This document shows, one piece after another, positions 19,890 through 45,749 of a stretch of DNA of 64,000 nt. Source of the DNA: an uncultured Candidatus Saccharibacteria bacterium (GTDB taxonomy: Bacteria; Patescibacteriota; Minisyncoccia; Minisyncoccales; JANBVM01); the NCBI GenBank assembly GCA_964493485.1, contig CAZBMQ010000001.1, positions 43,616 to 107,615 of the forward strand, in the 5' to 3' direction. The translations under genes were made by a program, and so were the position numbers. Position 1 is the stretch's first letter, and every line of letters starts with the position of its first letter. Below the pieces are notes generated by a model that made no database searches, was not told where the DNA came from, and worked only from the letters and a program-made list of their open reading frames with translations.

Positions 19890-22800
19890 TTATATTACCT
19901 TTTCCTTTTTTTGGAAGTACCAGGAAAGGAAGAAGCTAATCAAACCCAACAAAATGAATATCCATACATTCACACAGAAAGGCAATGTCTGTAAATAGCA
20001 TAGTACAGTTAATACCACAAGCAAAAGCATCCATATAAACCAAATCTTAGCTTGCTTCTTTCTTAACTTTCTCCAGTCATCCATAGCTTTTAACAATGAA
20101 TATCCAGCAAATACCAAGATTGACCAGCAAGGAAGACAGAGACAAGCGCCCCCAAACATTCCAGAAAAAAATCCACCAATACTAGCTAAAAGATTAGCAA
20201 AGAAGTTTCCTTCTGCTGGCTGCACTACCTCAGCCATCATTTCCTCTTCTGGAGCTTCAGCTTCTTCTACTACTTCTTCTTCAGAAGAAGTAGCTACAAC
20301 CTCCTCTTCAGGAAGACCTTCCTCTGCAGGAGGTACTTCTTCTGGACCACCCTCTGTTTCAGCAGGAGCGGCTTCTGGAACAGAAGGAAAAGTCTCTTCC
20401 ATCTTGCATAATGTGGAAAAACTATACTCTGGACTAAATACGGGAGGTGAAGCTGAAGAAACAATTCTGTAATAATAGGTAGTACAAGCTTTCAAGTCTG
20501 GAACAAATATGCTGTGCAAACTTACCATTCTAGTATCTGCTGGGTCAGGATAGGCATGAGCATAGCCATAGTAAGGCGGACTAGATTCATCTAAATTATG
20601 AGGTTCGTCTTCTCCAGAATAGATTATCTGGCTTGTAGAATCTAGATTGGTCTGCCAGTTAACAATTACATGATCCTCTGTAATGTCGAAATGATATTCA
20701 TTAAATATCCTCAATTCAGTTGTACCGCCTCTTCCACCAGCACCTTGTCCTCCTTCTCCTGTGCATACTGGATTCTGTGCACAATCTTCATCATCGCAAT
20801 CTGTATAACCATCGCAGTCATCATCTAATTGGTTATCGCAGACCTCTGAAGCTCCGGGATTAATATTAGAATTTGAATCATCGCAATCATCTCCTACCAA
20901 GCATAAAGGATCAGAATAGGCATAATAACCATCTTGGTCTGTATCAATACAACCATGTCCAGTGCCAGTGGTCCATCCTCCGCCGCCTCCTCCGCCGCCT
21001 CCTCCATCTCCAGATCCCTGACAATCAGAATCATTATCATCAACATCTCCATCACAATCATTATCTATTCCATCATCACAAATTTCAGTAGCCCCAGGAT
21101 TTACAGCAGAATTGGTATCATCACAATCTCCATCCTGAGTAGCTGTGTAGTCGCCTGAAGGCTCTGTTAAACATTGGCTATCACCTGTCACCCCATAACC
21201 ATCTTGGTCTGAATCTTTATAATAATTAGTGCATTCAGGCCCCTCTTCACAAGCTGGATTCTGTGCACAATCTTCATCATCGCAATCTGTATAACCATCG
21301 CAGTCATCATCTAATTGGTTGTCGCAGACCTCTGGAATAGGTTCTGAATCTGGAACACATTCTCCCCAAAAACCATCTTGCGTACATGTCTGAGTTCCAG
21401 CTGAACAAATACCTAATTGTCCTGTATCACAAACTCTTTGTTCTCCTGGTTCACACTCTTCTTCAATCATACAATCAGCTGAACAGCCATCACCATTTTC
21501 ATTGTTTCCATCATCACACTCTTCACCTTCTTCTACTATTCCATTGCCGCATACTGGTCCTGGAGGAGTTTCTTGTTCACAGAGGCAGGTATCCAAATTA
21601 CATACTGTGCCTTCTGGACAAGCACATTCATAGCCTATTTCACATTGTTCCTCTCCTTCTAAAACCCCATTACCACAGACTGGAGCACTGCATTCTTCAG
21701 TTGGTTGATAATATAACCTTACCCTGTCCCTATGAACATTGGTAATACTGCAGATATCACCTGTATTTTCTCCAGAGACAAAATTATATTCGTCATTTCC
21801 TGGTTTATCATTTTGAGGATCTCCTTCTACAATACCACACCCTTGGGTATCAGGTTTTTCATAACCTCCATCTGGTCCATTTTGAATCTGATCTATTAAG
21901 GCATTAATAAACTCAATATCAGCCTTAACAGATTCTCTTGTTTCTTTATGGTTAAATCCATAAGCGCTTATCTCAACGAAAAGACCAGTTTCATTTTCTC
22001 CTCTTTGAATATGAAGCCCAGGAACATCATCCTGGAAGGAGCTGACCTGAGGATCTATAATAGGATTTGTTCTATTGTCGGTTGTCAAAGGAATTACAAC
22101 CAAGGTTTGTCCGAAAGGCTCTGAATCATTCCCTACATACACATAATCAGACATATCAGCATGTTTGATAGCTCCCTCAGGATCGTAATTAGCAAAATAG
22201 GTTATATGAACCTTTAAGAAAGATTCACACTCTTCTTCAATCATACAATCAGCTGAACAGCCATCACCATTTTCATTGTTTCCATCATCACACTCTTCAC
22301 CTTCTTCTACTATTCCATTGCCGCATACTGGTCCTGGCTCTGGTTCGCAAAGACAGGTATCAGTATTGCACACATATCCGGGACAACAATCATATCCTAC
22401 CTCACATTCCTCACCCGGTTCTAAAATACCGTTCCCACAAACAGGTTCTGTTTCTTCTTGATAATTACCAAAATCCACATATACAGGTTCTTCACCTCCA
22501 AATGTAATCTCCTGATACAATGGTGTGGAGTTTATCCATCCTGACTGTAAAACCTCCTCTATTCTATAATCACCAGGCTCAACAGAGTTAAAGCAATAAT
22601 TACCATTTTCATCGGTTATATCACTGTCAACAACCTCCCAATCAGAAATACAATGAATAGCTTTTACTCCGTCTACATCAAAACCATCAACAACTCCTGT
22701 AAAATCATTAGGGTCTGTAACATCCTCCAGCTTTAAGTATTTAGCCCAAGCCAACCCATTTAAATCAAATTCACTATCCAAACACCCTATACCTAAATCC

Positions 22801-24107: not shown

Positions 24108-24162
24108 AATTTTATAAGTTCTTTTTAGAACTAATTATTTATTTTATTTATGCCACTAATAA

Positions 24163-24192
24163 GTTATAGGCATAAATTACGAGCATTGTCAA
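24163..24192 (-). promoter_or_regulatory. Candidate proximal promoter of the giant gene (TTGACA-N18-TATAAC)
   Basis: -35 is the complement of 24187-24192 and -10 is the complement of 24163-24168, ~55 nt upstream of the ATG at 24107. A second candidate, TTGACA-N17-TAAGAT, lies at 24376-24404. Confidence 0.45.
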
Positions 24193-24404
24193 TAACCTGA
24201 CCTTTGGTTCACAAAATATTTATGAAACACACCAAAAATGGGCTAAAGTTTTAGCTTTGTATAAACAAAGGATAAATGTCTTAATTTTTGTCAATGAGTA
24301 CTTTTTATCTTTAACAGATAAAAAGACAAAGAAGAAAAAGAAAGAACTATTATTCTAAAACTCTAAAGATGATAAATCTTATAAGGAAAAATAAGTATTG
24401 TCAA

Positions 24405-24436
24405 ATTGAATAATCAATTAATTGAATAATCAATTA
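24405..24436. repeat. Perfect tandem 2 x 16 nt ATTGAATAATCAATTA, each an ATTGA-N4-TCAAT palindrome
   Basis: Read directly. Sits just upstream of the distal TTGACA box. Confidence 0.85.
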
Positions 24437-24460
24437 AATTAATTACTTAAATGTCAAAGA

Positions 24461-24521
24461 TTAGGACATTTTAATTCTATGTCCTAATTTTGTCCTATTT
24501 TAGTGTCCTAATTTTGTCCTA
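24461..24521. promoter_or_regulatory. Cluster of five TGTCCTA/TAGGACA motifs (one inverted pair forming a 9-bp hairpin, then GTCCTAATTTTGTCCTA x2)
   Basis: TAGGAC at 24462; GTCCTA at 24481, 24492, 24505 and 24516 (spacings 11, 13, 11). The cluster overlaps the last codons of 24500-27553. Confidence 0.5.
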
Positions 24522-27500
24522 GTTCTTCTCTTTCTGACTATTTTCTTTACTTTTTTGTTTTTGGATTCCTCTTCTGAATCTCGTCTTTTCCAAAATAATA
24601 AAATCAATAAAAGAATAGGAAAAGCTATCCCATACATTTCATCGTCAGAAAGAAATTGTCCAACTGCAGCCAAAAGGTTGCCAAATACATTGTATTCTTT
24701 TTGATAGGAGAATTCGTCAGACATCAAATCATAGTATTTCGATTCGTAAGTTTCCGGTTCTCCTGTCTCTTCCTCTGCTAACACCTCTTGCACTATTGTT
24801 TTTACAAATTTTTCTGCTGGAGGTTCGGGGGTAATTCTTTGTATCTCTTCGTTTATTATCCTTATTTGTTTTTCAATCTCATCTAACTTTTCTTCAATCT
24901 CTTCAATAGAAACACCAGGCTCCTCTTGAGACTCCTCTGGTTCTGTTGCTTCCTCTTCAGAAAGAAGTTCTCCATTTCTTACCTCAATTGTCGTAGAAGC
25001 TATTTCTGAACTTACTGGATTGCCCAGTTGTCCAAAACCAATAGCCTGAGCAGTATTAGTATACAATCCAGATGGAATTTCTCCTCCTATAGCCACAGTG
25101 TAATCTATTGTTATCTCCTCATGTGGTAGTACCACGCCCAAATCCCAAGTATAGGTATTAATCACCTCTGAATCTTCATTTAATATGGTGTCTGTTACAA
25201 CCACATCATATGCTGCCCCATTACTATTATTAAGCAATACAATGGTATAACCTACATTCACAGGAGGAGAAACATAATCAGTATTATTTGTTTTTGTGAT
25301 TTCTAATTTAGGAAAAAACCACAAAAGAGGAACTGTTTTATATACTTCTACAGACAGACTGTCTGAATTATCTGCCTCATTCCAGTCGTCCTCATAACTG
25401 TCTATTATAGCCTCATTAACTAAATAACTATTTCCAGAAGGGATATCAGAATTAACTGTCACAGTATAAGAAACTGAACCAGAACCGCCTGCTGGAACTG
25501 TCCCAATTTCCCACATTATCTCTCCAGGATTATCTATCACAGTACCTCCCCCCTTATCTTTTATTGAAATATATCTTTCATCAAAATCATCTGTGATGAC
25601 AACCCCAGTAGCATCAGCATCCCCGTTGTTTCTATAGGTTAAAGTGTATGTAATAGTACCTCCTGGTTGAGTTGGTGTAGATTGAGTAATAGCGCTCTCA
25701 CCAATCCATAAATCTGGTCTGCCAAAAGCAAGATTGCCTTCCCAAGTGCCAAAAATGTTTATCATTCCCAGCAGCCAGTTTGTTCCAATCAGATCTGAAT
25801 TTAAAATATTTATAAGATTACTGAATACATTGGCATTCCCTGTCTGAATTGCAGCTTCTCCATTCTCAGCAAAAGCTGTATTGTCTCCAGTAGAGACATT
25901 CACTATTACACTATTTTTAATAAATCCTGTATTATCATTGACAATATCTAATACAGTATTTCCTGCCGGATTATTAAAGCCGTCGGAATCTAAATTATAA
26001 ATTTTAATTCCATTTATGTCTTCTGCTATATCTAATCCAGGAGGCAGGCTGAAAATATTTCCCTTCCATCCTCCAAACACATTAATTGCCATTATTAACC
26101 ATCTCCCTCCTACAAAGCTAGTGTTTACCATGTTCATAATATTGCTTTTAACAGTGCTGTCTCCTGTATAAATTACTGCATCCTCTCCTTCAGCTTCGTT
26201 TGTTCCAGTATCAGCATTTATTGAAACTTCGTTCTCCACCACACCTTCTGATGTATTGATTATAGAAGCCCCGCATCCTCCTATACAAGCAGTTGGCTGG
26301 TCTAAAAATCCCTGCACAGAATCTTTATTAGGAAGTATTAAGTCCCCTACCCAGTTATCAAATACATTAATAATTAAATTAGTCCAGTTTGAACCAATAA
26401 CATTGGTATTTAAAAGATTAAAAATACTGGCTGAGACATTTACATCTCCAGTATTGATAAATGCATCTCCATCTTCACTGGTAGCTGTATTCGAACCGCT
26501 TGAACCTTCAATAAACACATTGTTTTCAATTACTCCCGCATTCTCGTTGTGAATATCAAAACAATCTGTTGTAGAAAGCGCATGATTTTCAGAGATAGAG
26601 TTATCTAAAATATCAGAGATATTAATGTCTCCTTGTAAAAATTCAAAAATATTAAATAGAAAATTAGAAAAATCAGAATTGATAATATTTGTATTAACGG
26701 TATTGGTCAAAGCCACTACTAAATTTGTATTTCCAGTATAGATAAAACTGTCTCCTGAGTTACTTTCTGCTGTATTTTCTCCTGTCTCTCCTTCTAACAC
26801 TATATTATTTTCCACTATTGCCTCGTCTTCATTAACAATGCCAATTTCACAATCACATTCACATGGACATTCGCATTCCTCCTCAGGCTCTCCGCATTCG
26901 CATTCTTCTGGACACTCACATCCACAGGTTTCTGTTTCTGTCTCATCAGAATTTACTTCATTTTCAATATCAACTTCCCCATCTGCATCTCCTGTGACTA
27001 CAACACTATCTTCGTTTCCATCTTCATTCCCCTCTTGTAATCCTTCGTCTTCAGGCAAAGTTTCTTGAATATCATCTGAACTTGAGGAATTATTTGTTTC
27101 CTCTGGAGCTGTGTTTTCTGAGCTTGTTGCAGCTGGTGTTTCAAATTCTTCAGTACTCTCTCCTTCATTGTTCTCACTGTTCTCTCCTTCAGAATCCTCC
27201 TGGGCTGTATCTTGATCTGTGCTTCCTGAACCTTCATTATCTTGTGCTTCACTATCAGCGTCGTTTTCTTCTTCTGGAGCTTCTCCATTATCAGACCCGT
27301 TCTCTTCTGGATTCTCCTGGGTATTGCTCTCTTCCCCAGTACTCTCTTCATTTGAATCTCCTCCATTGCCTCCATTATCCATATCTGAATTCTGTTCAGA
27401 GTCTTCGTTTTCATCTGAAACAACGTCTGTATTAATTGAAGACCCTCCGTCTTCTGCTAAAGCAAAAAAGGTGTGATTATTGAAAACCACTAAACTAAAA

Positions 27501-27553
27501 ATAACTACACCCGCCAGAAAGAACCTTTTTAATTTATTTTGTTTTTTGTTCAT
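24500..27553 (-). CDS. 1017-aa secreted surface protein
   Basis: Signal peptide, then an acidic D/E/N/S region and a Cys-rich CxC patch. Four copies of the TG-x-N-x-A / TG-[DN] module. Two DUF11/CARDB-like repeats (ITYTLTYRNNGDADATGVVITD...). Acidic linker, then C-terminal NLLAAVG motif, TM helix and basic tail. Confidence 0.8.
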   Translation of the reverse strand: MNKKQNKLKRFFLAGVVIFSLVVFNNHTFFALAEDGGSSINTDVVSDENEDSEQNSDMDNGGNGGDSNEESTGEESNTQENPEENGSDNGEAPEEENDADSEAQDNEGSGSTDQDTAQEDSEGENSENNEGESTEEFETPAATSSENTAPEETNNSSSSDDIQETLPEDEGLQEGNEDGNEDSVVVTGDADGEVDIENEVNSDETETETCGCECPEECECGEPEEECECPCECDCEIGIVNEDEAIVENNIVLEGETGENTAESNSGDSFIYTGNTNLVVALTNTVNTNIINSDFSNFLFNIFEFLQGDINISDILDNSISENHALSTTDCFDIHNENAGVIENNVFIEGSSGSNTATSEDGDAFINTGDVNVSASIFNLLNTNVIGSNWTNLIINVFDNWVGDLILPNKDSVQGFLDQPTACIGGCGASIINTSEGVVENEVSINADTGTNEAEGEDAVIYTGDSTVKSNIMNMVNTSFVGGRWLIMAINVFGGWKGNIFSLPPGLDIAEDINGIKIYNLDSDGFNNPAGNTVLDIVNDNTGFIKNSVIVNVSTGDNTAFAENGEAAIQTGNANVFSNLINILNSDLIGTNWLLGMINIFGTWEGNLAFGRPDLWIGESAITQSTPTQPGGTITYTLTYRNNGDADATGVVITDDFDERYISIKDKGGGTVIDNPGEIMWEIGTVPAGGSGSVSYTVTVNSDIPSGNSYLVNEAIIDSYEDDWNEADNSDSLSVEVYKTVPLLWFFPKLEITKTNNTDYVSPPVNVGYTIVLLNNSNGAAYDVVVTDTILNEDSEVINTYTWDLGVVLPHEEITIDYTVAIGGEIPSGLYTNTAQAIGFGQLGNPVSSEIASTTIEVRNGELLSEEEATEPEESQEEPGVSIEEIEEKLDEIEKQIRIINEEIQRITPEPPAEKFVKTIVQEVLAEEETGEPETYESKYYDLMSDEFSYQKEYNVFGNLLAAVGQFLSDDEMYGIAFPILLLILLFWKRRDSEEESKNKKVKKIVRKRRTRTKLGH

Positions 27554-35245: not shown

Positions 35246-35868
35246 ATTTTAATATTGAATTTTCTTAAATCAGTTTTCAACTGTTTTGCATTCTTAAAAA
35301 GAATTGTATGCATCCCTAAAGACTTTTCCATCTCTAAAACCTGAGAAGAATTATCAACACAAACACATTCTTCGGGTTTGCATTTTATCTTTTTTAAAAG
35401 AATCTTATAGAATTTTTTTTCTTTTTTATTGGTGCCAAAATCAAATGAAAACACAAAATCATCAAACTCATTTAATAACCCGTATTTTTTATGTAAATAC
35501 TCAACTCTTTCTTTTATGTTTCCCGAAAAGACAATCACTCTATAATTCTTTCTTAATCTTCTCACAAGAGTCCTCATTCCCCTGTTGGGCTTATAAGAAG
35601 AATGCCAAATTTTTTCCAATCTGAGAAGCTGATTTTTACTAAGTTGAAGTTTTTTGGCAATCGCCTTCCAAAATTGCCTTCTTGTTAGTTTGCCCATACC
35701 ATAAAGAGCTTTTTCTTTACCTGTAAAAATATAATCAATCTTTCTTTTTCGGTCCTCTGGTAGGAATTTTAGCTTATTAAGATGTCGAAAAATTACTTTG
35801 GTTCCTGAACAAAAGTAAACACCACCCAAATCAAATACAATTGTTTTTATCATATTTTTTGTTTTCAT
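35242..35868 (-). CDS. HAD-superfamily hydrolase
   Basis: IVFDLGGVYF (motif I) with an ATGA overlap onto copB. The start may be the internal MIKTIVFD (35853). Confidence 0.65.
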   Translation of the reverse strand: MKTKNMIKTIVFDLGGVYFCSGTKVIFRHLNKLKFLPEDRKRKIDYIFTGKEKALYGMGKLTRRQFWKAIAKKLQLSKNQLLRLEKIWHSSYKPNRGMRTLVRRLRKNYRVIVFSGNIKERVEYLHKKYGLLNEFDDFVFSFDFGTNKKEKKFYKILLKKIKCKPEECVCVDNSSQVLEMEKSLGMHTILFKNAKQLKTDLRKFNIKI

Positions 35869-35889
35869 TGATATTTTAAATCTTGAAAT

Positions 35890-36051
35890 TTAGGATTTCC
35901 ATAATCCATGAACACTGCAACATTCTCTTGCTGTAATCCTCTTATCAGACTGGTGTAAATCAAACTCAACCTCAGGGTTATCTCCTGGTTTAAGAAATTT
36001 TCTATAAACCCTCTCCCCTACAACTATATTTGTATATTTGTCTCTGCCGGG
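35890..36051 (-). pseudogene. C-terminal remnant of a superoxide reductase (neelaredoxin-type)
   Basis: A 53-codon open frame without a start codon: PGRDKYTNIVVGERVYRKFLKPGDNPEVEFDLHQSDKRITARECCSVHGLWKS. The C-x-x-H-G-L-W end matches the SOR C-terminus (P. furiosus YCNIHGLWE, recollection). There is no room for the N-terminal His ligands before the rbr stop at 36072. Confidence 0.5.
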
Positions 36052-36071
36052 TCATATTTTATTTCTGTTAA

Positions 36072-36656
36072 TTAATATTCTTCACATTTTAACTCAAAAT
36101 AGTTCCTCGGATGATTGCAAGAAGGACAATACTCGGGAGGCTCTTCCCCTTCGTGAATATAACCACACTTTCTGCATACCCAATAAACCTTCTGTTCTTT
36201 TTTAAATACAGTATTTTGTTCTACTTCTTTTAACAACTTTTTGTATCTCTCTTCATGATGCTTTTCTGCTACAGCAATAGCACTCAATCTTGCTGCAATC
36301 TCTGGCAAACCCTCCTTTTCTGCTATATCTGCAAATTCAGGATACATTTGTGTATATTCATAATTTTCTCCTGCAATAGCTGATTTTAAATTATCTATAG
36401 TGCTACCCAAAATTGTGGGCACGCCAGCCTCTACTTTTATTTCATCGAACTCCTCATTGCTTTTCTTTTTTAAGTCATTAATCAACCTAAGAAGCCACTG
36501 AGCATGTTCTCTCTCATTTTCTGCGGTAATTAAAAAAATCTCTGAAATCTGCTCAAACCCTTCCTTTTTAGCTATCTTTGCATAAAAGGTATATCGATTT
36601 CTTGCTTGACTCTCCCCGATAAACGCCTTTGCTAAGTTTTCTATTGTGTTTTTCAT
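36072..36656 (-). CDS. rbr: Rubrerythrin
   Basis: Ferritin-like diiron domain ([20 protein letters not shown]) plus C-terminal rubredoxin-like CRKCG...CPSC. Confidence 0.9.
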
Positions 36657-36708
36657 AAATAGTATACTTTTTGTTAAATAAATAATATCGACCTTTTTAA
36701 AAATACAA

Positions 36709-37914
36709 TTAAGTCTCTTTGCAAGTATTGCAAACCATAAAAAATAAAACAGCTACTACAAAAGAAAGGGCTGCACCATAAACAAAAAGAAGGGTTGAAT
36801 TAATATCCCAAAGATATCCTGCAATAATACCTCCAGGAAGAGTCGCTAAACTTGTTGCTGTATGAAAAGTTCCCAAAGCAGTACCTCTCACTTCTTCTTT
36901 TGCCAAATCAGATATAAAAGCTCTCTCGGTAGCATTAACTAATGCATAATTCAAACCAAATAAAACAAATAAGATTATAAAAAACAAAAGAGAGTCTGAA
37001 AAAATAAAACCCAAACAAACCAATCCAAACAGTATATATCCCATCAATAAAACAGTTCTCCTACCTATTCTATCTGATAAAATCCCGGCTGGAACTGCAA
37101 ACAATGTATAAGCAGTATTGTAAAGAATATATAATAAAATAGGTATTCCTACAGCTGATCTCCCTTGAAAATAACTCTGACTCCTCAAAACAAAAAACAT
37201 ATAACTAAAATTACCTAAAGCAAACAAAGTTGCTAAAAAGATAAAAAGTCTGAGCGTTTTAGACAAGCTTTCTAATTTTATCCTCAAGCTTGTATTATCC
37301 TCTTTTGAGTTCTTTTTTTCTTCTTTTAGAAAAAATAAGGGAAATAAAGAAAAAAAGGCAATAATACCTGCTATCAAAAATATACTCTTGAAGCTTAATC
37401 TAAAATACCAAAACAAAACAAATGTAATAATAGCTCCCAAAACAGCTCCTCCGCTGTCCATGGCTCGATGAATACCAAAGCCCTTCCCTCTCTTGTCTTT
37501 TGTGGTAGAAGCAGCTAGGATTGCATCTCTCGGAGCTGACCTCACCCCCTTTCCAAACCTCTCTGTCATCCGCAAAAGCAATACATGGGGCCAAGTTCTT
37601 GCAAATGTAAATAAAAACTTACCAATAGAAGAGATAAAATAACCAAAAACGACAAAAGGTTTTCTTTTTTTAAATTTATCAGACCAATAACCTGCTATCA
37701 TTTTAAAAAGACTCGCAATGCTCTCGCCTAGCCCTGAAATCAAACCCACTGCCATGCCTCCTCCTCCTATTTCTTTAATAAAAAGAGGCAAGATAGGCAG
37801 AATAATCTTGCTGGAAGTGTCATTAATAAAACTGACCAAACCCAGCAAAATAACATTTTTTTGCCCTTCAGATTGTTTAGAGTTTTCATTATTAAAAGAC
37901 TCTTTTTCTTTCAT
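36709..37914 (-). CDS. MFS transporter
   Basis: ~12 TM segments with MFS loop motifs [12 protein letters not shown] and LSDRIGRR. Confidence 0.8.
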
Positions 37915-37919
37915 TTTTT

Positions 37920-38201
37920 TTATTTTCTTATCTTATATTCTTTTCTTTTTTTGTATTCTCTTTGTTTTGCAATATTCCATTGGGAAACTGGCCTCAAATA
38001 ACCGCACACCCTTGAATATACTTCGCATTTTCTAAAGTTTGTTAATCTTGGGTCTTTTTCAAAGCATTCTTTACATTTTACAACAAATAAATCCTTTCTC
38101 TCGTCTCTGTATTTTAATAAAACCTCCTCCCCTTCTTCAATCTCACTATTGCAATCATGGCAATAGCTATTTACTCTTCTCACATTTTTTGCAAATACCA
38201 T
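37920..38201 (-). CDS. 93-aa stand-alone NrdD C-terminal-type domain (zinc ribbon plus glycyl-radical motif RVCGY)
   Basis: CHDC...CKEC...EVYSRVCGYLRPVSQWNIAKQREYKKRKEY matches the class III RNR C-terminus. Overlaps the Fur-family gene by 35 nt. Confidence 0.6.
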   Translation of the reverse strand: MVFAKNVRRVNSYCHDCNSEIEEGEEVLLKYRDERKDLFVVKCKECFEKDPRLTNFRKCEVYSRVCGYLRPVSQWNIAKQREYKKRKEYKIRK

Positions 38202-38547
38202 AAATTAAAACTTGATATTTTTTAACTCTGCCGACCTTTGTCTTTTTAATCTCAGCCATCTTAATCTCTTCAAACACATCAAAAATCCCTCCGCATCTTT
38301 CACAAAAAAAATGGGCATGGGGAGACAAACATCCATCATAATGTCTTATCTCGCAAGGAAGTTCTTGAATTTCTCCTTTTTCTTTAAGATTGTTCAGAAT
38401 TCTATAAACAGTCCCCTTGCTTATCCGAGGAAGTTTCTTCCTTACATTTAAATAAACCTCTTCGGCTGAAGGATGGGATTTTGTTTTTTTTAAATAATCC
38501 AATATAATCTTCTTCTGAGAAGTGATTCTTTCTTTTACACTCTTCAT
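38167..38547 (-). CDS. Fur-family metalloregulator (PerR-like by context)
   Basis: Winged-helix N-terminus (HPSAEEVYLNVRKKLPRISKGTVYRILNNL), HFFCERCG and CKKC zinc site. Neighbours are rbr and an SOR remnant. Confidence 0.85.
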   Translation of the reverse strand: MKSVKERITSQKKIILDYLKKTKSHPSAEEVYLNVRKKLPRISKGTVYRILNNLKEKGEIQELPCEIRHYDGCLSPHAHFFCERCGGIFDVFEEIKMAEIKKTKVGRVKKYQVLIYGICKKCEKSK

Positions 38548-38598
38548 ATTAGTACTAATTCCTATTTAGATTCTATTCCTAATAAAAATAGCTGTCAA
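38548..38598 (-). promoter_or_regulatory. Promoter TTGACA-N17-TAGAAT plus 12-bp palindrome ATTAGTACTAAT abutting the Fur-family ATG
   Basis: -35 is the complement of 38593-38598 and -10 is the complement of 38570-38575. The palindrome is at 38548-38559. Confidence 0.5.
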
Positions 38599-38639
38599 CA
38601 AACAGCTTGTAGAAAAACAAAAAAGTTTTCAAAAATATA

Positions 38640-39014
38640 TTACTCTTCAACAGGCTCTCCTAACTTCCTTTTAAGTCTTTTTATTTCCTCTTTCAGTTCT
38701 ATCATCTTTAACTCTCTGCCCGTTGTCAGCTCACGCCACTGCTCAAGCTCCTCAAGTCTTTTCTTTGCTTCTTCTTCCCTCTTCCTTCTCTCTTCTTCCA
38801 TTTGTTTCCTTGTTTTTTCCAATTCCCGTAAGTCATCCATCATCAAACTCAATCCAATAAATAATTCTGAAAACTCATCTTCTTGTTCTGGAATTTCTAT
38901 TTTGCCTGAAAAATCTCCTACTGCTGCTTTCTGAATTATTGGAATCAACTGGGAAAGTCTCTTTTTTACATATTCTTTGTATTTTTTTAGCTCCTCTGAT
39001 TCTGTTTGATTCAT
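38640..39014 (-). CDS. 124-aa HAMP-like plus coiled-coil protein with TTGRELKMIELKEEI motif
   Basis: GDFSGKIEIPEQEDEFSELFIGLSLMMDDL is HAMP-like. The coiled coil shares a motif with the 49170-50084 C-terminus. Confidence 0.5.
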   Translation of the reverse strand: MNQTESEELKKYKEYVKKRLSQLIPIIQKAAVGDFSGKIEIPEQEDEFSELFIGLSLMMDDLRELEKTRKQMEEERRKREEEAKKRLEELEQWRELTTGRELKMIELKEEIKRLKRKLGEPVEE

Positions 39015-39035
39015 ATGTTTAATAAATATTATTAA

Positions 39036-39443
39036 TTAACCCTGCTTTAACCACTTTACTGCTTCTTCTTTTGAGCTAAATAATTTTATGTCTGATTTAA
39101 CTCCGCTTGCTGTTATTATAAATGAAGCTATGGTTCTTGCTATTATCCCTCCAAATACTGCCACCTTTTTAGGTGTCAATTCTTGAAACAACTCTTTCAC
39201 CCTACCTGCTATATCTTTTCTTAATTTAGAAGATAAAGGAATTAATCCGCTAGTAATATCTACCAAAACCAACAAATCTCCTGAAAATCTCCTTACTATT
39301 TCTCTCCCTTCTTTTATTAAATTGTCAATACTTTCCATATCTATATTTTTTATTAGTTTCACATTAGCTATCCCGTCTTGGTCTATCCAGATCTTCATTT
39401 CTTCCTTTGAACTTTCCCCAATTGTATTATCTTGGTCTGCCAT
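39036..39443 (-). CDS. SpoIIAA/STAS-like small protein, paralog 1
   Basis: Paralog of 57393-57785. C-terminal motif RTIA-x-FIITA...LFSSKE-x-A-x-x-WL. Confidence 0.55.
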   Translation of the reverse strand: MADQDNTIGESSKEEMKIWIDQDGIANVKLIKNIDMESIDNLIKEGREIVRRFSGDLLVLVDITSGLIPLSSKLRKDIAGRVKELFQELTPKKVAVFGGIIARTIASFIITASGVKSDIKLFSSKEEAVKWLKQG

Positions 39444-39476: not shown

Positions 39477-40244
39477 TCATCTTTTTTTCAAGAATACAGA
39501 CAAAAGAAAAAAGAAAGAATTTACTAGAATAATTAATGGCCCTGCAGAATATCCGGTTGATCTACTTATAAATATTCCAAAGATACAACTTACTGCACCT
39601 AATATCATTGCTCCATAAGAATATTGAAATAGGTTTTTGCTTAAATTTCTAGAAGCACATGCAGGAATAGCCACTAAAGCTGCTGTCAAAAGACCCCCTA
39701 CTATCTTTACGCCTAATACCACAATTATGGAAATACAAGCTAAATAAATAAAATTATATTTTCTTACATCTATTCCCTCTACCTTAGCTAAGTCTTCTGA
39801 GATGCTTAAAAAAATTATCTTGTTGTAAATTCTCTGAAGGATTAAAAAAATTATCAAAGATAATCCAACAGAAATAAAAGCCTCTAGAACCCCTACATTA
39901 GCAATATCACCTACCAAAGCTGTTTCTAAATCTTCAGAAGGAAGAATTAAAAAAGCCACAGCCACTCCAGTTGCAAACACCACAGCTGTAAGAGATTCTA
40001 CTGGTAAACGAGTTCTCATCTCAAAAAACCATATCAAAACAGCACCTAAAACCACAAAAGGTAAAGCTCCCAAAGAAACATCAAATCCATATATCAAAGC
40101 TAAAGCAATTCCCGGCAGAGTCAAATGTCCTAATGGTCCTGCAATCAAACCCATTTTCTTTGAAACCATCAAAGAGCCTAAATATCCTGCTGTTCCGCCA
40201 ATAAATATTCCTGTTATCAAACTAAATAAAAATTGATTATCCAT
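39477..40244 (-). CDS. ABC-3 family metal (Zn/Mn/Fe) transporter permease
   Basis: ~8 TM, ZnuB/MntB/TroD-like composition and size. Overlaps the ATPase gene. Confidence 0.8.
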   Translation of the reverse strand: MDNQFLFSLITGIFIGGTAGYLGSLMVSKKMGLIAGPLGHLTLPGIALALIYGFDVSLGALPFVVLGAVLIWFFEMRTRLPVESLTAVVFATGVAVAFLILPSEDLETALVGDIANVGVLEAFISVGLSLIIFLILQRIYNKIIFLSISEDLAKVEGIDVRKYNFIYLACISIIVVLGVKIVGGLLTAALVAIPACASRNLSKNLFQYSYGAMILGAVSCIFGIFISRSTGYSAGPLIILVNSFFFLLSVFLKKR

Positions 40245-40935
40245 GAAGATGTTGATAGAATTTTATTTCTCCTCCATAAAGCTGAACTAAGGTCTCCGGA
40301 GAAATAATTTCTCTCGGAGGTCCAAAGCATAAAGCTTTTTTATTAAGACACAATACTTTATCAGCTATCTTATATACAATATTTAAATCATGAGAAACCA
40401 AAAGCATTGTCATTTTCCTTTCTTTCTGAATTCTTCCTAAAAGATGGTAAATATTTTCCTGTCCTCCAATATCGATACCAAAAGTGGGTTCATCGAAAAG
40501 CAACACCTCTGGATTTTCGCATAAACCCCAAGCAACAAGGATTCTTTGAAACTGACCTGTAGAAAGAGTTGTTATTTTCTTTTTCAAAATGTCAGAGTGA
40601 AACATACCTACCGCCTTCAATATATTTAAAACCTCTTCATAATCTTTCTTTTTTAAATTAAAAAATTCCTTTATGGTCAAAGGAAAATCTTTTGCTAAAG
40701 GAAGATTTGTAGGAATATAACTTATTTTTAAACCCTTCCTCCAACTTATCTCTCCTTCATAGGGCAAAAGTCCCAACAAAGTCCTAAATAGAACAGTTTT
40801 TCCAGCACCGTTAGGCCCTAAGACAGTTAATGTTTCTCCCTCTTTTACTTTAAAACTTAAATCTTCAATAATTTTTTCTCCATTTAGCTTTACATTTAAA
40901 TTCTTCACTTCCAAAATATTGTTTTGCGTTTCCAT
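40237..40935 (-). CDS. Metal ABC transporter ATPase (ZnuC/TroB-like)
   Basis: Walker A GPNGAGKT, signature LSTGQFQR, Walker B LLFDEP. No substrate-binding protein gene is adjacent. Confidence 0.88.
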   Translation of the reverse strand: METQNNILEVKNLNVKLNGEKIIEDLSFKVKEGETLTVLGPNGAGKTVLFRTLLGLLPYEGEISWRKGLKISYIPTNLPLAKDFPLTIKEFFNLKKKDYEEVLNILKAVGMFHSDILKKKITTLSTGQFQRILVAWGLCENPEVLLFDEPTFGIDIGGQENIYHLLGRIQKERKMTMLLVSHDLNIVYKIADKVLCLNKKALCFGPPREIISPETLVQLYGGEIKFYQHLHG

Positions 40936-40993
40936 AATATTCCTATTCTATCACAAAAAATAAAATTAAAAAAAATTGTCTAATTTGTACATT

Positions 40994-41272
40994 CTATTTT
41001 CTGTGAATACGGATCGCTTTTCCTTCTATAAGAGCTTCGGCTATTTTTCTGCGAGCTGAGGCTAAAATCCTTCCAAGAGTACTTTGGGAAATTTTCATTT
41101 TTTTTGCTGCTTCTATCTGATCCAAATCTTTCAAATCACAAAGCCTTACTGCTTCTAACTCATCAACCCTTAAATCAACCTCTTCTAAATCAGAAAGAGG
41201 CACTGCTCTTGGCTTGAAATATGTCACATTAGGGTCAAATAAAATCCGTCTTGGTTTTATTGGTCTCACCAT
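40994..41272 (-). CDS. DUF134 (UPF0251) predicted DNA-binding protein
   Basis: MVRPIKPRR...YFKPRAVPL...LEAVRLCDLKDLDQIEAAKKMKISQSTLGRIL is a sigma-70 region-4-like HTH. Confidence 0.8.
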   Translation of the reverse strand: MVRPIKPRRILFDPNVTYFKPRAVPLSDLEEVDLRVDELEAVRLCDLKDLDQIEAAKKMKISQSTLGRILASARRKIAEALIEGKAIRIHRK

Positions 41273-41325
41273 AACACAATAATTAGGTGATAAGCTCTAA
41301 AGCTTACTCCTTGATATAATATATT

Positions 41326-42213
41326 TTACAAAATAAAAGTTAGTTTTTTAAAAATTTTAACAATTTCCTTTTTAGCTCTTAAATTAGTTTCCAAAATAGG
41401 AGTCAAATTGGCTACTGCCTTAAATATTCTTTTGTCGTAAGAAATACTTCCTAAAAACCTCTTGCCTGCCCATTTTTTTATTTCTTTTGCTATTTCTATA
41501 TTAATATCCCATTTATTTACAATAATCCTGTATGGAACCCTAAAATGATTTATTACCTCCAATACCCTCTTTAAATCAGAAAAACCAGAAACAGTAGGTT
41601 CTGTCACCAATACAGCAAAATTAGAATCCTGCAATGCCGCAATAACTGGACAACCTGTGCCGGGAGAAGAATCTAAAATCTGAATTTCAGCTTTATATCT
41701 ATCAGCTTCTTTTTTTATTTCTGTTATCACCTTACCTGAACCAGTCTCTCCAGGAAAAAGAATACCTGTTATTAAGGGAAACCCATATTTCGTAGCAACA
41801 ATAATCATTTCTCCATTTTGAACAGGCTTTAGCTTTACTGCTTTCTGAGGACAAACAATCTCACAAACCCCACATCCCTCACATAGGAAAGGATTTAAAA
41901 CAGGCTTCCCTTTTACTAACTCTATCGCTTTAAAACGACAATTTTTTATACATAAACCACAATTATTACATTTTCTCAAATCAATTTTTGGCTTTACAGA
42001 AGCAGTAATAGGGAGTTTTTTTAACATTCTCTCTCTTTTCTTCTCTATTGGTATACCAAGCCAGATTGCGAGATTTGGAGCATCAACATCACAATCAACA
42101 GCTGTTATCTTTTTCCTCTTCGCAAAAAGTAATGCGAAACTCGAAGCTATCATTGACTTTCCTACCCCTCCTTTACCAGATAGGATAACAATTTTTTTAA
42201 TCCTGCTTGCCAT
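41326..42213 (-). CDS. MinD/ParA-type P-loop ATPase with inserted 2x[4Fe-4S] ferredoxin motifs (copy 2)
   Basis: SGKGGVGKS, CNNCGLCIKNC and CEGCGVCEIVCP motifs. I place the start at MASRIKK (42213), which removes the overlap with the upstream gene. Confidence 0.8.
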   Translation of the reverse strand: MASRIKKIVILSGKGGVGKSMIASSFALLFAKRKKITAVDCDVDAPNLAIWLGIPIEKKRERMLKKLPITASVKPKIDLRKCNNCGLCIKNCRFKAIELVKGKPVLNPFLCEGCGVCEIVCPQKAVKLKPVQNGEMIIVATKYGFPLITGILFPGETGSGKVITEIKKEADRYKAEIQILDSSPGTGCPVIAALQDSNFAVLVTEPTVSGFSDLKRVLEVINHFRVPYRIIVNKWDINIEIAKEIKKWAGKRFLGSISYDKRIFKAVANLTPILETNLRAKKEIVKIFKKLTFIL

Positions 42214-42232
42214 TTTATACCTTTTAGGTTTC

Positions 42233-42748
42233 TTATTCAGGAAGAATACAAAGGGTGTTATTGAATCTATTAATATAGTTAAACAATCCAATAATTGACA
42301 CTATTTCTATTATCTCTTCTTCTGAAAAATCTTTTTTCAATTCTTCTAAAAGTTCGGGAGTACACACATGTGCTTTTAGCGTCACTTCTTTTACCAAAGT
42401 CAACACTTCCTTTTCATCTTGATTTGAACCTTCTCCGCTTCTCACCTGTTCTATCATCTCGTCTGAAGCTCCCAAAGATTTTAACATCTTTGTGGTCACA
42501 TCTACACAAAAAGGACATCTTAAAGAATTAGAAACCACAAATGCTATTTTCCACTTTAATAAAGGTTCTATTTTGCCTTCACCCATTATTACTTTAAAAA
42601 GCTCTGTAAATTCTTTTACTATTTTGGGGCTATGAGCCATTACTTTCACCCACTCAGGCACTTTTCCTGTTTGTTTTTCAAATTTCTCATAAACCTCACG
42701 AGCTATCTCATTTACCTCGTTTTTTTCTAATGAAGGAATTATCGCCAT
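42233..42748 (-). CDS. AhpD/carboxymuconolactone-decarboxylase-like protein
   Basis: CMD-like helical protein with a CPFC (CxxC) motif. Confidence 0.65.
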   Translation of the reverse strand: MAIIPSLEKNEVNEIAREVYEKFEKQTGKVPEWVKVMAHSPKIVKEFTELFKVIMGEGKIEPLLKWKIAFVVSNSLRCPFCVDVTTKMLKSLGASDEMIEQVRSGEGSNQDEKEVLTLVKEVTLKAHVCTPELLEELKKDFSEEEIIEIVSIIGLFNYINRFNNTLCILPE

Positions 42749-42765
42749 ATATTTAGTTTCTGAAT

Positions 42766-43599
42766 TTAGAATTTTTCTATATTTAATAAGCGACCTTTTG
42801 AATAGGATTCTGCCAATTCTCTTGAATAAGGAATCTCTTCTTCTATTTTTGTTTTAAATTTTCTAAGCACACTTATAACTTCTCTCTTATCTCCCAAGTC
42901 TGCTTGATTTAAAATTATCTTAGAGGGAATCTTCAGTTTTTCACACAACCTTAAAATCAAGCCCAAATCATGAGCTCCCATTGGAGTCGGCTCAGTTATA
43001 ATCATCGCTAAATCACAATTCAACAAAGCTGAAATTACAGGACAATGTGTGCCTGGTGCTGTATCAAATAGAATAATGTCAGCTTTTTGTTTTTTAGCAA
43101 AATCTAAAGCAAACTCTTTGGTTCTTAACACAATAGGACCTGTTTCTTCAATGCCAGGATTTGATAAGCCTGTAATCAACCAAAAATTATTTCTTACCTT
43201 ATTAACAAAAATCTGGCCTACTTTTTCCTTTTTCCTTTTTATCGCATTGTTTGGACAAACCATCCAACAAGCTCCACATGAAGAGCATAAATCTTTAATA
43301 AAAACAGGAAACTTTCCAGGAGCCTGGAAAATAGCATTGTTCTTGCAATTCCTTACGCACAATCCGCATTTCTTACATTTTGTCTTCAATAATTTAGGGT
43401 ATTCATTGTAAATATATTTTCTCGGTTTCTTTAGCCTCTCTCCAAGCAACAAATAATCATTTGGACATTCAACATCGCAATCGCATAAAATTATCCTTTT
43501 CTTTCTCTTTACAAACTGCTCTGCTTTCAACACAGCAACTGTTGATTTTCCTACACCTCCCTTACCTCCTGTGATTGCTATCTTTTTTAAATCCTTCAT
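42766..43599 (-). CDS. MinD/ParA-type P-loop ATPase with inserted 2x[4Fe-4S] ferredoxin motifs (copy 1)
   Basis: GGKGGVGKST, CKKCGLCVRNC and CSSCGACWMVCP motifs. Confidence 0.8.
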   Translation of the reverse strand: MKDLKKIAITGGKGGVGKSTVAVLKAEQFVKRKKRIILCDCDVECPNDYLLLGERLKKPRKYIYNEYPKLLKTKCKKCGLCVRNCKNNAIFQAPGKFPVFIKDLCSSCGACWMVCPNNAIKRKKEKVGQIFVNKVRNNFWLITGLSNPGIEETGPIVLRTKEFALDFAKKQKADIILFDTAPGTHCPVISALLNCDLAMIITEPTPMGAHDLGLILRLCEKLKIPSKIILNQADLGDKREVISVLRKFKTKIEEEIPYSRELAESYSKGRLLNIEKF

Positions 43600-43600
43600 T

Positions 43601-44845
43601 TTATTCTTTTTCTTTTGTAGGCTTGTCTAATTTTATTAATTTATTCCCAAAAAACTGTTTGATTACTTCTCCTACCTTATCTTGTTCTGCCTTATATACT
43701 TCTATTAGATTATTTTTCAAACTCTGAAAGGCTATCGGGCCAATCTCTTTTGTAATTAATATATCAGGCTCTTCTTTTGATAAATGCTCTGCCACAGCCA
43801 AACCTGCTCTTATTTCTTTGTTTTTGAAAGGATTTTCTTTAAATTCAAAAGACTGGATATTGTTTTTCTTAATTTTAACAAGAATAAAAGAATCTGCTCT
43901 TGCAAAACTATCGGATATTAAAGAATCAAGTCCGCTTTTTTGTTTTATTGGAACTACAATCATCTGCTCGAAAGATTTAAAAGGCTCAATATGAATAATA
44001 AAAGACTCAATCTGAGGAATCGCCTCTTTCACCTTCCTTTCTATCTGATCTGTTATATCATGGGCTCTTGCTACTTCAATAAATTTTTTAATTTTAATAT
44101 TCACTTCTCCAAAAATAAAAGGGCCTGATTTTCTCAGTTTTAATCCCGAAAAAGCCTTAATCTCTGAAATAGATTTCAAGACATCTGCAATTCTCTTTTC
44201 TATTTCTTCGCTCGGACTAACATCCATCAAAGAATAAATTGAGTCTTTAAAAGATTCAAGCCCTATCCTGAAAATAAGCAATGAAAACAAAATACCTATA
44301 ATCCCTTCTAATTTGGGAATATTCAAATAAGAAGAAAGAATTCCAACCACCACTAGAAAAGAAGAAACAATATGAGACTTTGCTTCTGTGCCATGTGCTA
44401 TCAAGCTTTGAGAATTTATCTCTCTACCAACTCTTACTTCATACTTTCCTACCAAATAGATTAAAAACGCGTCTAATATTGAAATAGCTATCGCAATAAA
44501 TGGAAGCTTTAAACTATACAAAACAGAAATTCTCTCACAGCTCTCTCTGGCAATCTCATAACCGGCATATAAAATCAAAACAGAAACCATCAAAGAGACA
44601 AGATTTTCTGCTTTATAAAATCCATAAGGAAATTGTTCTGTTGGTTTTCTTTGAGATATTTTAAAACCAAGCCATACAAAAAAAATAGAAAAAGCATCAC
44701 CAATACTATGAATAGCATCAGATAGAAGTGCTACACTTCCAGAAATAATACCTATCAACATCTTTAAACCCGCCAACAAAAAAACAACCATATTTACTTT
44801 TTTTGCTGTGGCTTCCCCTGTTTTTAAAATTTCTTCCTTTTTCAT
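43601..44845 (-). CDS. Cation diffusion facilitator (CDF) transporter fused to a C-terminal NifX/NifB-type cofactor-binding domain
   Basis: CDF TM core (LSDAIHSIGDAF, FPYGFYKAEN) plus a cytoplasmic CTD. Then ~110 aa (IVVPIKQKSGLDSLISDSFARADSFILVKI...ILITKEIGPIAFQSLKNNLIEVY) resembling the next gene. Confidence 0.7.
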   Translation of the reverse strand: MKKEEILKTGEATAKKVNMVVFLLAGLKMLIGIISGSVALLSDAIHSIGDAFSIFFVWLGFKISQRKPTEQFPYGFYKAENLVSLMVSVLILYAGYEIARESCERISVLYSLKLPFIAIAISILDAFLIYLVGKYEVRVGREINSQSLIAHGTEAKSHIVSSFLVVVGILSSYLNIPKLEGIIGILFSLLIFRIGLESFKDSIYSLMDVSPSEEIEKRIADVLKSISEIKAFSGLKLRKSGPFIFGEVNIKIKKFIEVARAHDITDQIERKVKEAIPQIESFIIHIEPFKSFEQMIVVPIKQKSGLDSLISDSFARADSFILVKIKKNNIQSFEFKENPFKNKEIRAGLAVAEHLSKEEPDILITKEIGPIAFQSLKNNLIEVYKAEQDKVGEVIKQFFGNKLIKLDKPTKEKE

Positions 44846-44865
44846 ATATTTACTTCTTTTTTTAT

Positions 44866-45291
44866 TTATCTTCCTCCTCTATGTCTGTGCCTATGTCTTC
44901 GTCTTTTTCCAAACCCAGAGCCAAAACCTCTTTGAAAATGTCCAGGAACACTTGGAATCTTAAGCTGGGTTAATTGATTTTTCTTCCACATTAAAAACAC
45001 CTGTTTTACTGTAAGATTAAACGGGGCAAAGAAAATCTTTACCCCGGCTGTGCTTAAAACATCGAAAGCATTGGGACCAATATTCCCTGTAATCAATACT
45101 CCTGCCTTTTTCGAAGCAATCTCTTGAGCAGCGGCGATTCCTGCTCCTCTCATAGCCCTTATTCCTGCATTCGGACATATATCTATTAAATCTCCATTTT
45201 CATCTAAAAAAAGAAAATAAGGAGCTCTTCCAAATCGAGGGCTGATAGGAGAATCCAGTGTTTTGCCTAAAGAAACTACACAAATATTCAT
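44866..45291 (-). CDS. NifX/NifB-C/NafY-type (dinitrogenase FeMo-cofactor-binding fold) small protein with His/Arg-rich tail
   Basis: SPRFGRAPYFLFLD...GVLITGNIGPNAFDVLSTAGVKIF, with tail KRRRHRHRHRGGR. Confidence 0.78.
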   Translation of the reverse strand: MNICVVSLGKTLDSPISPRFGRAPYFLFLDENGDLIDICPNAGIRAMRGAGIAAAQEIASKKAGVLITGNIGPNAFDVLSTAGVKIFFAPFNLTVKQVFLMWKKNQLTQLKIPSVPGHFQRGFGSGFGKRRRHRHRHRGGR

Positions 45292-45298
45292 ATTGTTT

Positions 45299-45676
45299 TT
45301 ATTTCTTTTTTTTCTCTAACCCTTTGAGTCTTTCTTCTATTGCTTTCATTTCTTCTCTTAAAACCTCAAGTTCATCTTTTAATATTTCTTTTTCTTCCTT
45401 TAATAACTCTTTCTCTTCTTTCGGAGTCAATTCTTCAACAGGATAGTCAAAATAAGGAAACATCCAAGCTGGAGGATATCCCCATCTTCGCCCCCATCCA
45501 AGACCCCATCCTCTGCCCCAACCTCTTCGCCAACCGAATCCTCGACCCCATCCTCTGCCCCATCCTCTGCCTATTGGGTTTAAATATCCAGGATACGGAT
45601 ATCCAGCACAATATCCCAATCTTCTCCCAGTACCAGGACCTAATCCCAAGGGACCTGTTTTATCTCCTAATGGCAT
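45299..45676 (-). CDS. DUF5320-family protein (Gly/Arg/Trp-rich N-half, coiled-coil C-half)
   Basis: MPLGDKTGPLGLGPGTGRRLGYCAGY, then (RGWG)n, then a LKEEKEILKDELEVLREEMKAIEERLKGLE coiled coil. ATG at 45676; the track ORF starts at an upstream TTG. Confidence 0.7.
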   Translation of the reverse strand: MPLGDKTGPLGLGPGTGRRLGYCAGYPYPGYLNPIGRGWGRGWGRGFGWRRGWGRGWGLGWGRRWGYPPAWMFPYFDYPVEELTPKEEKELLKEEKEILKDELEVLREEMKAIEERLKGLEKKKK

Positions 45677-45749
45677 ATTTTTCAAAAAAATAAATTATTT
45701 TAAGAAAAATCGACCTTTCTTCCGCTACATTATGAGTATATACCCATAA

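Follow-up and report, generated by a model that had tools for sequence, protein, structure and literature searches.

What could be the role of a gene that encodes only the last portion of an anaerobic ribonucleotide reductase (RNR) and overlaps a gene for a PerR-like regulator? This question is raised by an open reading frame (ORF) of 93 codons, starting with ATG, at positions 37920-38201 (reverse strand) of a 64,000-nucleotide stretch of contig CAZBMQ010000001.1 from an uncultured Candidatus Saccharibacteria bacterium (hereinafter, the window). The product of this gene belongs to a large, widespread and unrecognized family of free-standing radical domains of NrdD, the class III RNR. In the best supported view, the family would provide class III RNR with its glycyl radical in trans, and for the 93-aa protein itself, we lean toward a trans-acting glycyl radical domain (GRD) that would be activated by NrdG and would serve, under the control of peroxide stress, as a replacement part once oxygen has done damage.

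A family of free-standing NrdD radical domains

The first-pass annotation, made from the DNA sequence alone, described the ORF as containing only the C-terminal end of NrdD, with a zinc ribbon and the RVCGY motif, and this description holds on both counts. The match of the 93-aa protein to the Pfam NRDD profile (PF13597; E=3.1e-11, 43.1 bits against a gathering cut-off of 26.2) is confined to profile positions 509-562 of 562, that is, the extreme C-terminus. The NCBIfam NrdD equivalogs match the protein just along their last 35-50 positions and below their whole-protein cut-offs: TIGR02487 is aligned over positions 535-580 of 581 and scores 37 bits vs a cut-off of 326, and the others score 31 vs 585 bits and 25.9 vs 548 bits. 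The translation reads MVFAKNVRRVNSY-CHDC-(25 aa)-CKEC-FEKDPRLTNFRKC-EVYSRVCGY-LRPVSQWNIAKQREYKKRKEYKIRK. A predicted zinc ribbon, C14-H-D-C17 ... K42-C43-K-E-C46 (residues 14-46; positions 38064-38162, reverse strand), recognized by translation and conservation, precedes the glycyl-radical motif E60-VYSRVCG67-Y68 (residues 60-68; positions 37998-38024, reverse strand; the Gly67 codon is 38001-38003), in which the RVxGY signature found near the C-terminus of NrdD takes the form R64-V-C-G67-Y68. The ten-stranded alpha/beta barrel with its cysteine finger loop (CCRL in enzymes from the candidate phyla radiation (CPR)), which defines NrdD, is lacking in the 93-aa protein; the ATP-cone is optional in the class definition. 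An identical protein (P0001) is called as a gene on a 133,305-bp ENA metagenome contig, of which the window is the reverse complement over about 64 kb.

The AlphaFold model of the protein (mean pLDDT 75.6) includes a beta-hairpin, the ribbon, at residues 26-43 and a short helix, with Gly67 at the tip of a second hairpin (62-65/68-71) that is followed by the helix 77-85; the modeled arrangement of Gly67 is consistent with a glycyl-radical loop. When the family profile was compared with PDB sequences, only the tail of the Thermotoga maritima NrdD was reached (E ~0.009), with the EVYSRVCGY motif region aligned to residues 612-645 (4COI, 4U3E). The 93-aa protein shares with the C-terminal domain of this enzyme the zinc ribbon, the RV(V/C)GY Gly loop and the short helix; the C-terminal domain of the T4 NrdD is another suitable comparator. 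In the loop, the sequences are nearly the same as in CPR NrdDs, and in one relative, L006, the identity is as high as 100% at the DNA level. Unlike the NrdD domain, the 93-aa protein forms a polypeptide of its own that begins with its own start codon and lacks the barrel and an ATP-cone; its first knuckle is CHDC, whereas the CPR NrdDs examined have CPxHG; and it contains an insertion of 20-30 residues between the knuckles along with a family-specific linker, DPxLxNF.

A word-index search with the 93-aa protein produced 90 matches, every one of which was small (68-129 aa). An exhaustive search of representative sequences yielded 1478 matches; about 130 of the best 150 were small, and full-length NrdDs appeared only near the bottom of the best 150. 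Complete small proteins with both the Cys4 and the Gly motif account for 88 of the 90 word-index matches and for 102 of the best 150 representative matches, with a median length of 102 aa. Among 133 aligned members, C43, C46, R64 and G67 are invariant, and C14, D16, C17, K42, EVYS, Y68, R70, P71, W75, K79, E82 and R86 are conserved in at least 90%; in a separate alignment of 26 homologs, C14, D16, C17, K42, C43 and C46 are all invariant. The build common to the family and absent from NrdD consists of the CHDC first knuckle, the insertion, a KCxxC second knuckle and the linker (D/N)PxLxN(F/Y)xx before EVYSR. The named homologs of the 93-aa protein come from Nealsonbacteria and Minisyncoccales; together with gene order that matches CPR loci, they place the source of the window among the CPR/Patescibacteria. 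The deltaproteobacterial type alone comprises 592 clusters. In the databases, the small proteins are annotated as "hypothetical" or mislabeled as the full reductase.

Such labels, together with the shortness of the protein and its match to just the end of a large enzyme family, could point to a decaying remnant of a disrupted nrdD or to a gene-calling artifact, and a degenerate fragment was indeed among the alternatives raised by the first-pass annotation. This explanation can be practically discounted and is considered already refuted. The start codon is real, given that the N-terminus (M-x-x-x-K-N) is conserved, and a decaying fragment is excluded by the family-wide conservation across hundreds of clusters, by the shared zinc ribbon and linker unlike those of NrdD, by the conserved operon position, and by pairwise dN/dS values of 0.03-0.15 in three subfamilies.

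NrdDs with and without a built-in radical domain

Loci encoding 36 small proteins of this type, on GTDB contigs sampled at one genome per species, were annotated together with metagenome loci by phmmer with reference proteins. The gene order nrdR-nrdD-small-nrdG, in which nrdG is adjacent to the small gene, is found in 17 species-representative GTDB genomes and additionally in L006 and L094. In setting A1, which includes 11 loci (L006, L018, L022, L023, L025, L026, L032, L033, L038, L040 and L094), the NrdD in this order is complete, with its own ...CPKC...EVYSRVVGYIRPV... tail. In setting A2 (L013, L014, L027, L034, L035, L039 and L042), the gene order is the same, and the NrdD ends shortly past the zinc ribbon, with degenerate remnants such as TEVFLKVGEEEL before the stop. 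Setting B is marked by an overlap of 28-35 nt between a PerR-like gene and the small gene, namely, 35 nt in the window and 28-32 nt in L003, L008, L009, L016 and L017. Setting C comprises versions of 109-166 aa in Desulfobacterota, with variable neighbors.

The A2 loci carry the evidence for action in trans. Complete NrdDs have 228 invariant columns, of which the seven A2 NrdDs retain 206-212; the 16-22 columns lost fall, except for 0-5 scattered substitutions in the body, within residues 694-721 (L006 numbering), that is, in the radical domain. With this domain gone from the NrdD, and with an intact CCRL cysteine loop and an intact nrdG downstream, the small protein offers the sole glycine that NrdG could activate at these loci. 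The gap between nrdD and the small gene spans 25-140 nt (in L013, for example, nrdD occupies 7766-9961 and the small gene 9986-10285) and, being as short as 25 nt, leaves no place for a hidden exon. In a neighbor-joining tree of the NrdD bodies (no bootstrap), the A2 forms appear in at least three separate places among the A1 forms, which suggests that the built-in domain was lost repeatedly, once the free domain existed. The exact site of O2 cleavage is known for the E. coli NrdD, and the truncated A2 bodies are about the size of the O2-cleaved enzyme. Judging from these sequences, the A2 loci apparently encode natural two-piece class III RNRs, with at least three losses of the domain. Since these natural NrdD variants have lost this domain only, the provision of the glycyl radical in trans is the best supported function of the family. 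We are not aware of any described glycyl radical enzyme in which a separate subunit carries the radical glycine.

At the A1 loci, the adjacent NrdD keeps its own EVYSRVVGY motif, and the two copies coexist and are both conserved. Identical runs of Gly-loop DNA are shared by the 3' end of nrdD and the small gene, with lengths of 90 (L006), 59 (L023), 56 (L094) and 35 nt (L033), compared to at most 21 nt in non-cognate pairs of nrdD and small genes. The mean third-position identity in cognate pairs is 0.64 vs 0.45 in permutations, and none of the 20000 permutations reached the observed value. These patterns indicate recurrent gene conversion that would hold the loop of the spare matched to the resident enzyme. 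The loop variant also follows the NrdD of the lineage: CEVYSRVVGYL is present in B-type proteins and in the NrdD clade that includes L023, L045, L050 and L058, and TEVYSRVVGYI is the loop of the A type. The subfamily of the window protein is itself tied to the reductase, because B-type sequences with the EI(K/V)NGxLL insertion occur within an nrd operon in L023, L094 and P0060; the adjacent NrdD is complete in L023 and L094 (P0060 is known as a protein only).

The same survey bears on the possibility that the 93-aa protein is an obligatory subunit, that is, the sole carrier of the glycine for an NrdD body that lacks the radical domain and is encoded elsewhere in the genome, with the PerR linkage merely placing RNR activity under redox control. 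The split nrdD that the first-pass annotation offered as an alternative does exist in the family, in the seven genomes with a GRD-less nrdD; these amount to 7 of the 18 nrdD-adjacent loci, and with at least three losses, disappearance of the built-in domain is a common outcome. However, in every GRD-less case seen, the small gene has kept its place between nrdD and nrdG and is not part of a stress locus far away, and the NrdD clade that matches the sequence type of the window protein (L023, L045, L050, L058 and L094) has its own radical domain in every member examined. An obligatory subunit is, then, an unlikely role for the protein in the window.

Two kinds of variants were noticed around these loci. 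Many nrdD-adjacent small proteins (L018, L022, L025, L026, L032, L033, L034, L040 and L042) have Cys-rich C-terminal tails (..ATCC, ..ACC, ..GCC, ..CASC, ..CVC), which are absent from the cognate NrdDs and from the window protein and bring to mind the redox-active cysteines at the C-termini of class I and II RNRs. Furthermore, ORFs of 43-90 aa that contain only the Gly loop, without the zinc ribbon, are found directly behind an nrdD that lacks this loop in L078 (9983-10123) and L087 (9998-10135); such ORFs are also present at many viral loci (L137-L174). These ORFs resemble plain split genes or terminal exons, possibly related to introns or endonucleases, and are distinct from the ribbon-bearing family.

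The PerR-linked operon and the role of the 93-aa protein

The first gene of the operon in the window encodes a PerR-like regulator of the Fur family (38167-38547, reverse strand; PF01475, E=1e-22), and its 3' end overlaps the 5' end of the small gene in a different frame for 35 nt (38167-38201, reverse strand, from the coordinates); an overlap with a Fur/PerR-family gene had been noted in the first-pass annotation. The small gene was also said there to lie next to rubrerythrin; a rubrerythrin gene is indeed nearby (36072-36656, reverse strand; NF045767, 258 bits vs a cut-off of 200), albeit two genes away, with a major facilitator superfamily (MFS) transporter gene in between (36709-37914, reverse strand; PF07690, E=6.5e-51). 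The MFS gene starts 5 nt downstream of the small gene and is probably on the same transcript; rubrerythrin follows 52 nt downstream of the MFS gene. The best solved relatives of the regulator are the Bacillus subtilis PerR 2FE3 (E=8e-18) and, next, the Streptococcus pyogenes PerR. In the alignment to 2FE3, the equivalents of H37, D85, H91, H93 and D104 (B. subtilis numbering) and both CxxC pairs of the structural Cys4 are present, so that the regulator has the PerR ligand set. The top NCBIfam models for the regulator are two PerR equivalogs, NF047406 (89 vs 200 bits) and NF052545 (83.6 vs 180 bits), and since both scores are below the cut-offs, we refer to the regulator as PerR-like rather than as a certified equivalog.

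Upstream of the regulator gene, there is a sigma-70-like promoter, TTGACA, 17 nt, TAGAAT (38570-38598, reverse strand; 11/12 matches, the best site in 35800-39100), and a perfect palindrome, ATTAGTACTAAT (38548-38559), lies between the -10 element and the ATG of the regulator. This palindrome is a candidate Fur/PerR-type operator, through which the operon would be regulated by peroxide. The same layout of promoter plus box aligns upstream of the regulator in L003, L009, L016 and L017 and is found directly upstream of the small-rubrerythrin gene pair in L010. Related AT-rich boxes occupy the equivalent place in other loci: AATTATTACTAAT, AATAGTTATCATTAAT, AATTATTATTAGTA and AATAATTATCAAAT.

The survey of small NrdD C-terminal homologs and their neighbors showed that the linkage with PerR-like regulators and rubrerythrin recurs in other genomes. 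Setting B often continues into rubrerythrin, desulfoferrodoxin or hemerythrin, one of which follows the small gene in L003, L005, L010, L012, L017, L090 and L092; rubrerythrin does so in L003, L005, L010, L017, L036, L090 and L092. In L005, L010, L012, L090 and L092, the regulator is missing and rubrerythrin or hemerythrin is downstream. PerR-rubrerythrin oxidative-stress operons are known in anaerobes, e.g., Desulfovibrio vulgaris and Clostridium acetobutylicum. The operon in the window resembles these in the succession of a Fur-family regulator with the PerR ligand set and rubrerythrin, in the operator-like palindrome at the promoter and in the presence of desulfoferrodoxin and hemerythrin downstream in relatives; it differs in that the radical-domain gene is wedged in and overlaps the regulator gene, for which no report was found in the literature searched.

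Some of the relatives show further features of their own. A deltaproteobacterial metagenome-assembled genome (L036:9488-11471) encodes an Rrf2-family regulator, the small protein, a rubrerythrin-like protein and a flavin reductase-rubredoxin fusion, and this is an independent redox-stress association under a different regulator family. In the small-rubrerythrin lineage of L005 (9217-10000), L090 (9118-10000) and L092 (9116-10000), a non-coding stretch of about 800 nt, in which only tiny ORFs are called, precedes the small gene; at least the last 150 nt before the small gene, as read in L005, are extremely AT-rich and contain many short palindromes such as TTTAATATTTAAA and TAAAATCAAAATTTTA.

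The known counterparts of such a protein act on pyruvate formate-lyase (PFL): GrcA (YfiD) in E. coli and Y06I in phage T4 are autonomous glycyl radical cofactors by which the O2-cleaved enzyme is repaired. Like GrcA, the 93-aa protein amounts to little more than the radical domain of a large glycyl radical enzyme; the genomes of its relatives also encode the parent enzyme, complete with a domain of its own; there are viral versions and a link to stress; and the proposed manner of action, activation by the activase of the parent enzyme followed by docking into the damaged enzyme, would be the same. Unlike GrcA, with which there is no detectable homology, the 93-aa protein matches the C-terminus of NrdD, has a Cys4 zinc ribbon where GrcA has a disordered N-terminal half, and belongs to a PerR-type operon; by inference, it serves a different enzyme, and in some lineages, the small protein has become the sole radical subunit. 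Membership in the GrcA family (PF01228-type, IPR011140) was considered and rejected, with no Gly_radical or GrcA model among the Pfam and NCBIfam matches with E up to 0.1. The 93-aa protein is NrdD-derived but not an NrdD, and GrcA-like in working but outside the GrcA family.

Given the PerR-linked setting and the complete NrdDs of the matching clade, a GrcA-like spare part is the most likely, if unproven, role of the 93-aa protein at this locus. A radical-domain protein beside a full-length parent enzyme with its own domain, the hallmark of a spare part, is found at 11 loci of relatives. The spare-part idea of the first-pass annotation is in line with these loci, where a complete NrdD is accompanied by nrdG, and with the apparent gene conversion and the recurring PerR and rubrerythrin link; it does not extend to the seven genomes that apparently use the small protein as an obligatory subunit instead. 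Mechanistically, NrdG would abstract the hydrogen from Gly67 of the small protein, and the radical-bearing domain would dock in trans into an NrdD barrel without its own Gly loop, placing the radical beside the conserved CCRL cysteine loop and restoring nucleotide reduction. Oxygen has been reported to cleave the NrdD backbone at the glycyl radical; spare domains that are not activated, and hence oxygen-stable, could repair the enzyme thus cleaved. As the small gene overlaps, and is probably co-transcribed behind, the gene for a PerR-like repressor, peroxide or oxygen stress would be expected to raise the level of the small protein.

Several observations weigh against this proposal. The search for nrdD and nrdG, which covered 82 kb of the 133-kb contig, detected neither gene. 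Phmmer with CPR NrdD and NrdG gave no match among all ORFs of at least 40 aa in the window besides the 93-aa protein, bearing out the earlier remark that the catalytic barrel is missing from the ORF and the window alike, and the Pfam lists for 10 kb past each window end, where bacterial ribosomal-protein operons and miscellaneous genes are located, include no NRDD or activase domain. Pfam scans of the large ORFs in the window also revealed no RNR of any class. Window positions 5926-15544 and L006:7235-20110 have in common a block that runs from metallo-beta-lactamase to peptidase M50-S12-S7-EF-G; in L006, the nrdR-nrdD-small-nrdG cluster is located just upstream of this block, and there are no nrd genes at the syntenic position of the window. 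No genome that combines an unlinked small gene with a complete NrdD was seen among the 80 GTDB loci listed from 600 stretches, which had no assembly prefix in common; this result carries no weight as evidence of absence. The ATTAGTACTAAT palindrome occurs elsewhere in the window at the chance level, with no excess, so that no regulon can be defined. A Foldseek comparison of the AlphaFold model with the PDB gave nothing with E below 0.76, and generic zinc fingers only, which is uninformative because the small domain normally packs inside the barrel. Finally, the cleaved NrdD retains its own zinc ribbon, so the docked complex would hold two ribbons; the GRD-less natural variants show, as far as can be judged from sequence, that two ribbons would be tolerated.

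The failure to find an RNR gene nearby, together with the overlap of the small gene with the regulator gene, might also indicate a role apart from ribonucleotide reduction: the protein could sense oxygen or peroxide, act together with the PerR-like regulator, serve as a decoy substrate that keeps the activase busy under stress, or donate a radical to another glycyl radical enzyme. The unlinked copies in Desulfobacterota, with their variable neighbors, could fit such a role, and so could the Cys-rich tails of many nrdD-adjacent small proteins, which have no counterpart in NrdD, so that these proteins are not plain copies of its domain. We nevertheless regard such a role as quite improbable: the Gly loop and its flanks are NrdD-specific and co-vary with the NrdD of the lineage, gene conversion with nrdD is apparent, the same type of protein is encoded within nrd operons, and none of the other families of glycyl radical enzymes is matched in Pfam.

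Two other regions of the window and the counterpart of one L006 gene deserve mention. The area upstream of the PerR-like operon (39477-45685) is a metal or Fe-S handling neighborhood. It includes a compact cluster (40994-45685, reverse strand) with DUF134, two ATPases of the MinD/CbiA type that contain 4Fe-4S ferredoxin domains, a CMD-like protein, a fusion of a cation-efflux protein with a Nitro_FeMo-Co domain, another Nitro_FeMo-Co protein that stands alone, and DUF5320; next comes a pair of genes for an ABC-type metal transporter (39477-40935). Two very large ORFs, of 1405 and 1017 aa (19890-27553, reverse strand), carry MopE-type metal-binding, DUF4215, DUF11 and SdrD-like repeats and probably encode surface proteins. 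In the block shared with L006, a 743-aa ORF without a Pfam match (13313-15544) occupies the place of ComEC.

Viral members and significance of the family

Viruses encode members of the family as well. A scan of IMG/VR identified about 40 contigs that encode complete small proteins and have neither NrdD nor NrdG in the surrounding 6 kb. In the 90-kb tailed-phage contig L110 (IMGVR_UViG_3300025000_000005), the small gene (5833-6273) is surrounded by genes for the tail sheath, tail tube, tape measure and head morphogenesis, sitting between a PmgB-like head-morphogenesis gene and the tape-measure gene; further viral loci are L095-L136. The search of GenBank phages returned a single record, the archaeal virus ANMV-1 (KP703175.1), in which the family member is a 144-aa protein (AJP62049.1; L175:12507-12941). 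Like the 93-aa protein, it has a CHDC...KCPKC zinc ribbon and the linker, followed by EMYSRIVGYLRPVNQWNKGK; it differs in its greater length and an N-terminal extension. The 38.5-kb ANMV-1 genome, which is complete according to its authors, encodes no catalytic barrel and no activase. Carrying the radical domain alone, the virus must rely on the NrdD and NrdG of the host. The gene was named nrdD in the paper on ANMV-1, where the virus was concluded to encode the oxygen-sensitive reductase, and the database label is "anaerobic ribonucleoside triphosphate reductase." A viral gene for the radical domain only is a parallel to Y06I of T4, which acts on PFL.

The full-text literature search found no description of an NrdD-type spare part, and a June 2026 review states that formate lyases alone among glycyl radical enzymes have identified spare parts and that for the other enzymes this question is open; the 2021 YfiD paper makes the same statement. 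The first-pass annotation had thus been right to call such a repair strategy undescribed. Should the proposal be correct, this would be the first spare-part system for a glycyl radical enzyme other than PFL and the first natural glycyl radical enzyme whose radical glycine resides on a subunit of its own. In either case, the family provides a concrete, testable spare-part candidate for the anaerobic RNR, which is the most widespread glycyl radical enzyme, and the naturally GRD-less NrdDs offer a built-in positive control, for which the small protein should be absolutely required. An annotation correction also follows, for proteins labeled as full anaerobic reductases or as hypothetical; one such label has been used in print to argue for the RNR capacity of a virus.

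More tentatively, at somewhat less than even confidence in the whole, we envisage that in CPR bacteria, many Desulfobacterota and their viruses, the class III RNR is a modular, two-piece enzyme in which the radical domain is a cheap, exchangeable cartridge. A stress-controlled gene would re-arm the cleaved reductase without the need to remake the 700-aa barrel, some lineages would have dropped the built-in domain, and viruses would bring the cartridge along to boost dNTP synthesis in the host. Free-standing NrdD radical domains may explain why a radical-domain gene belongs to PerR regulons, why a mini "nrdD" is found in viruses that infect anaerobes, and how transient oxygen is survived by strict anaerobes that have tiny genomes and only one RNR.

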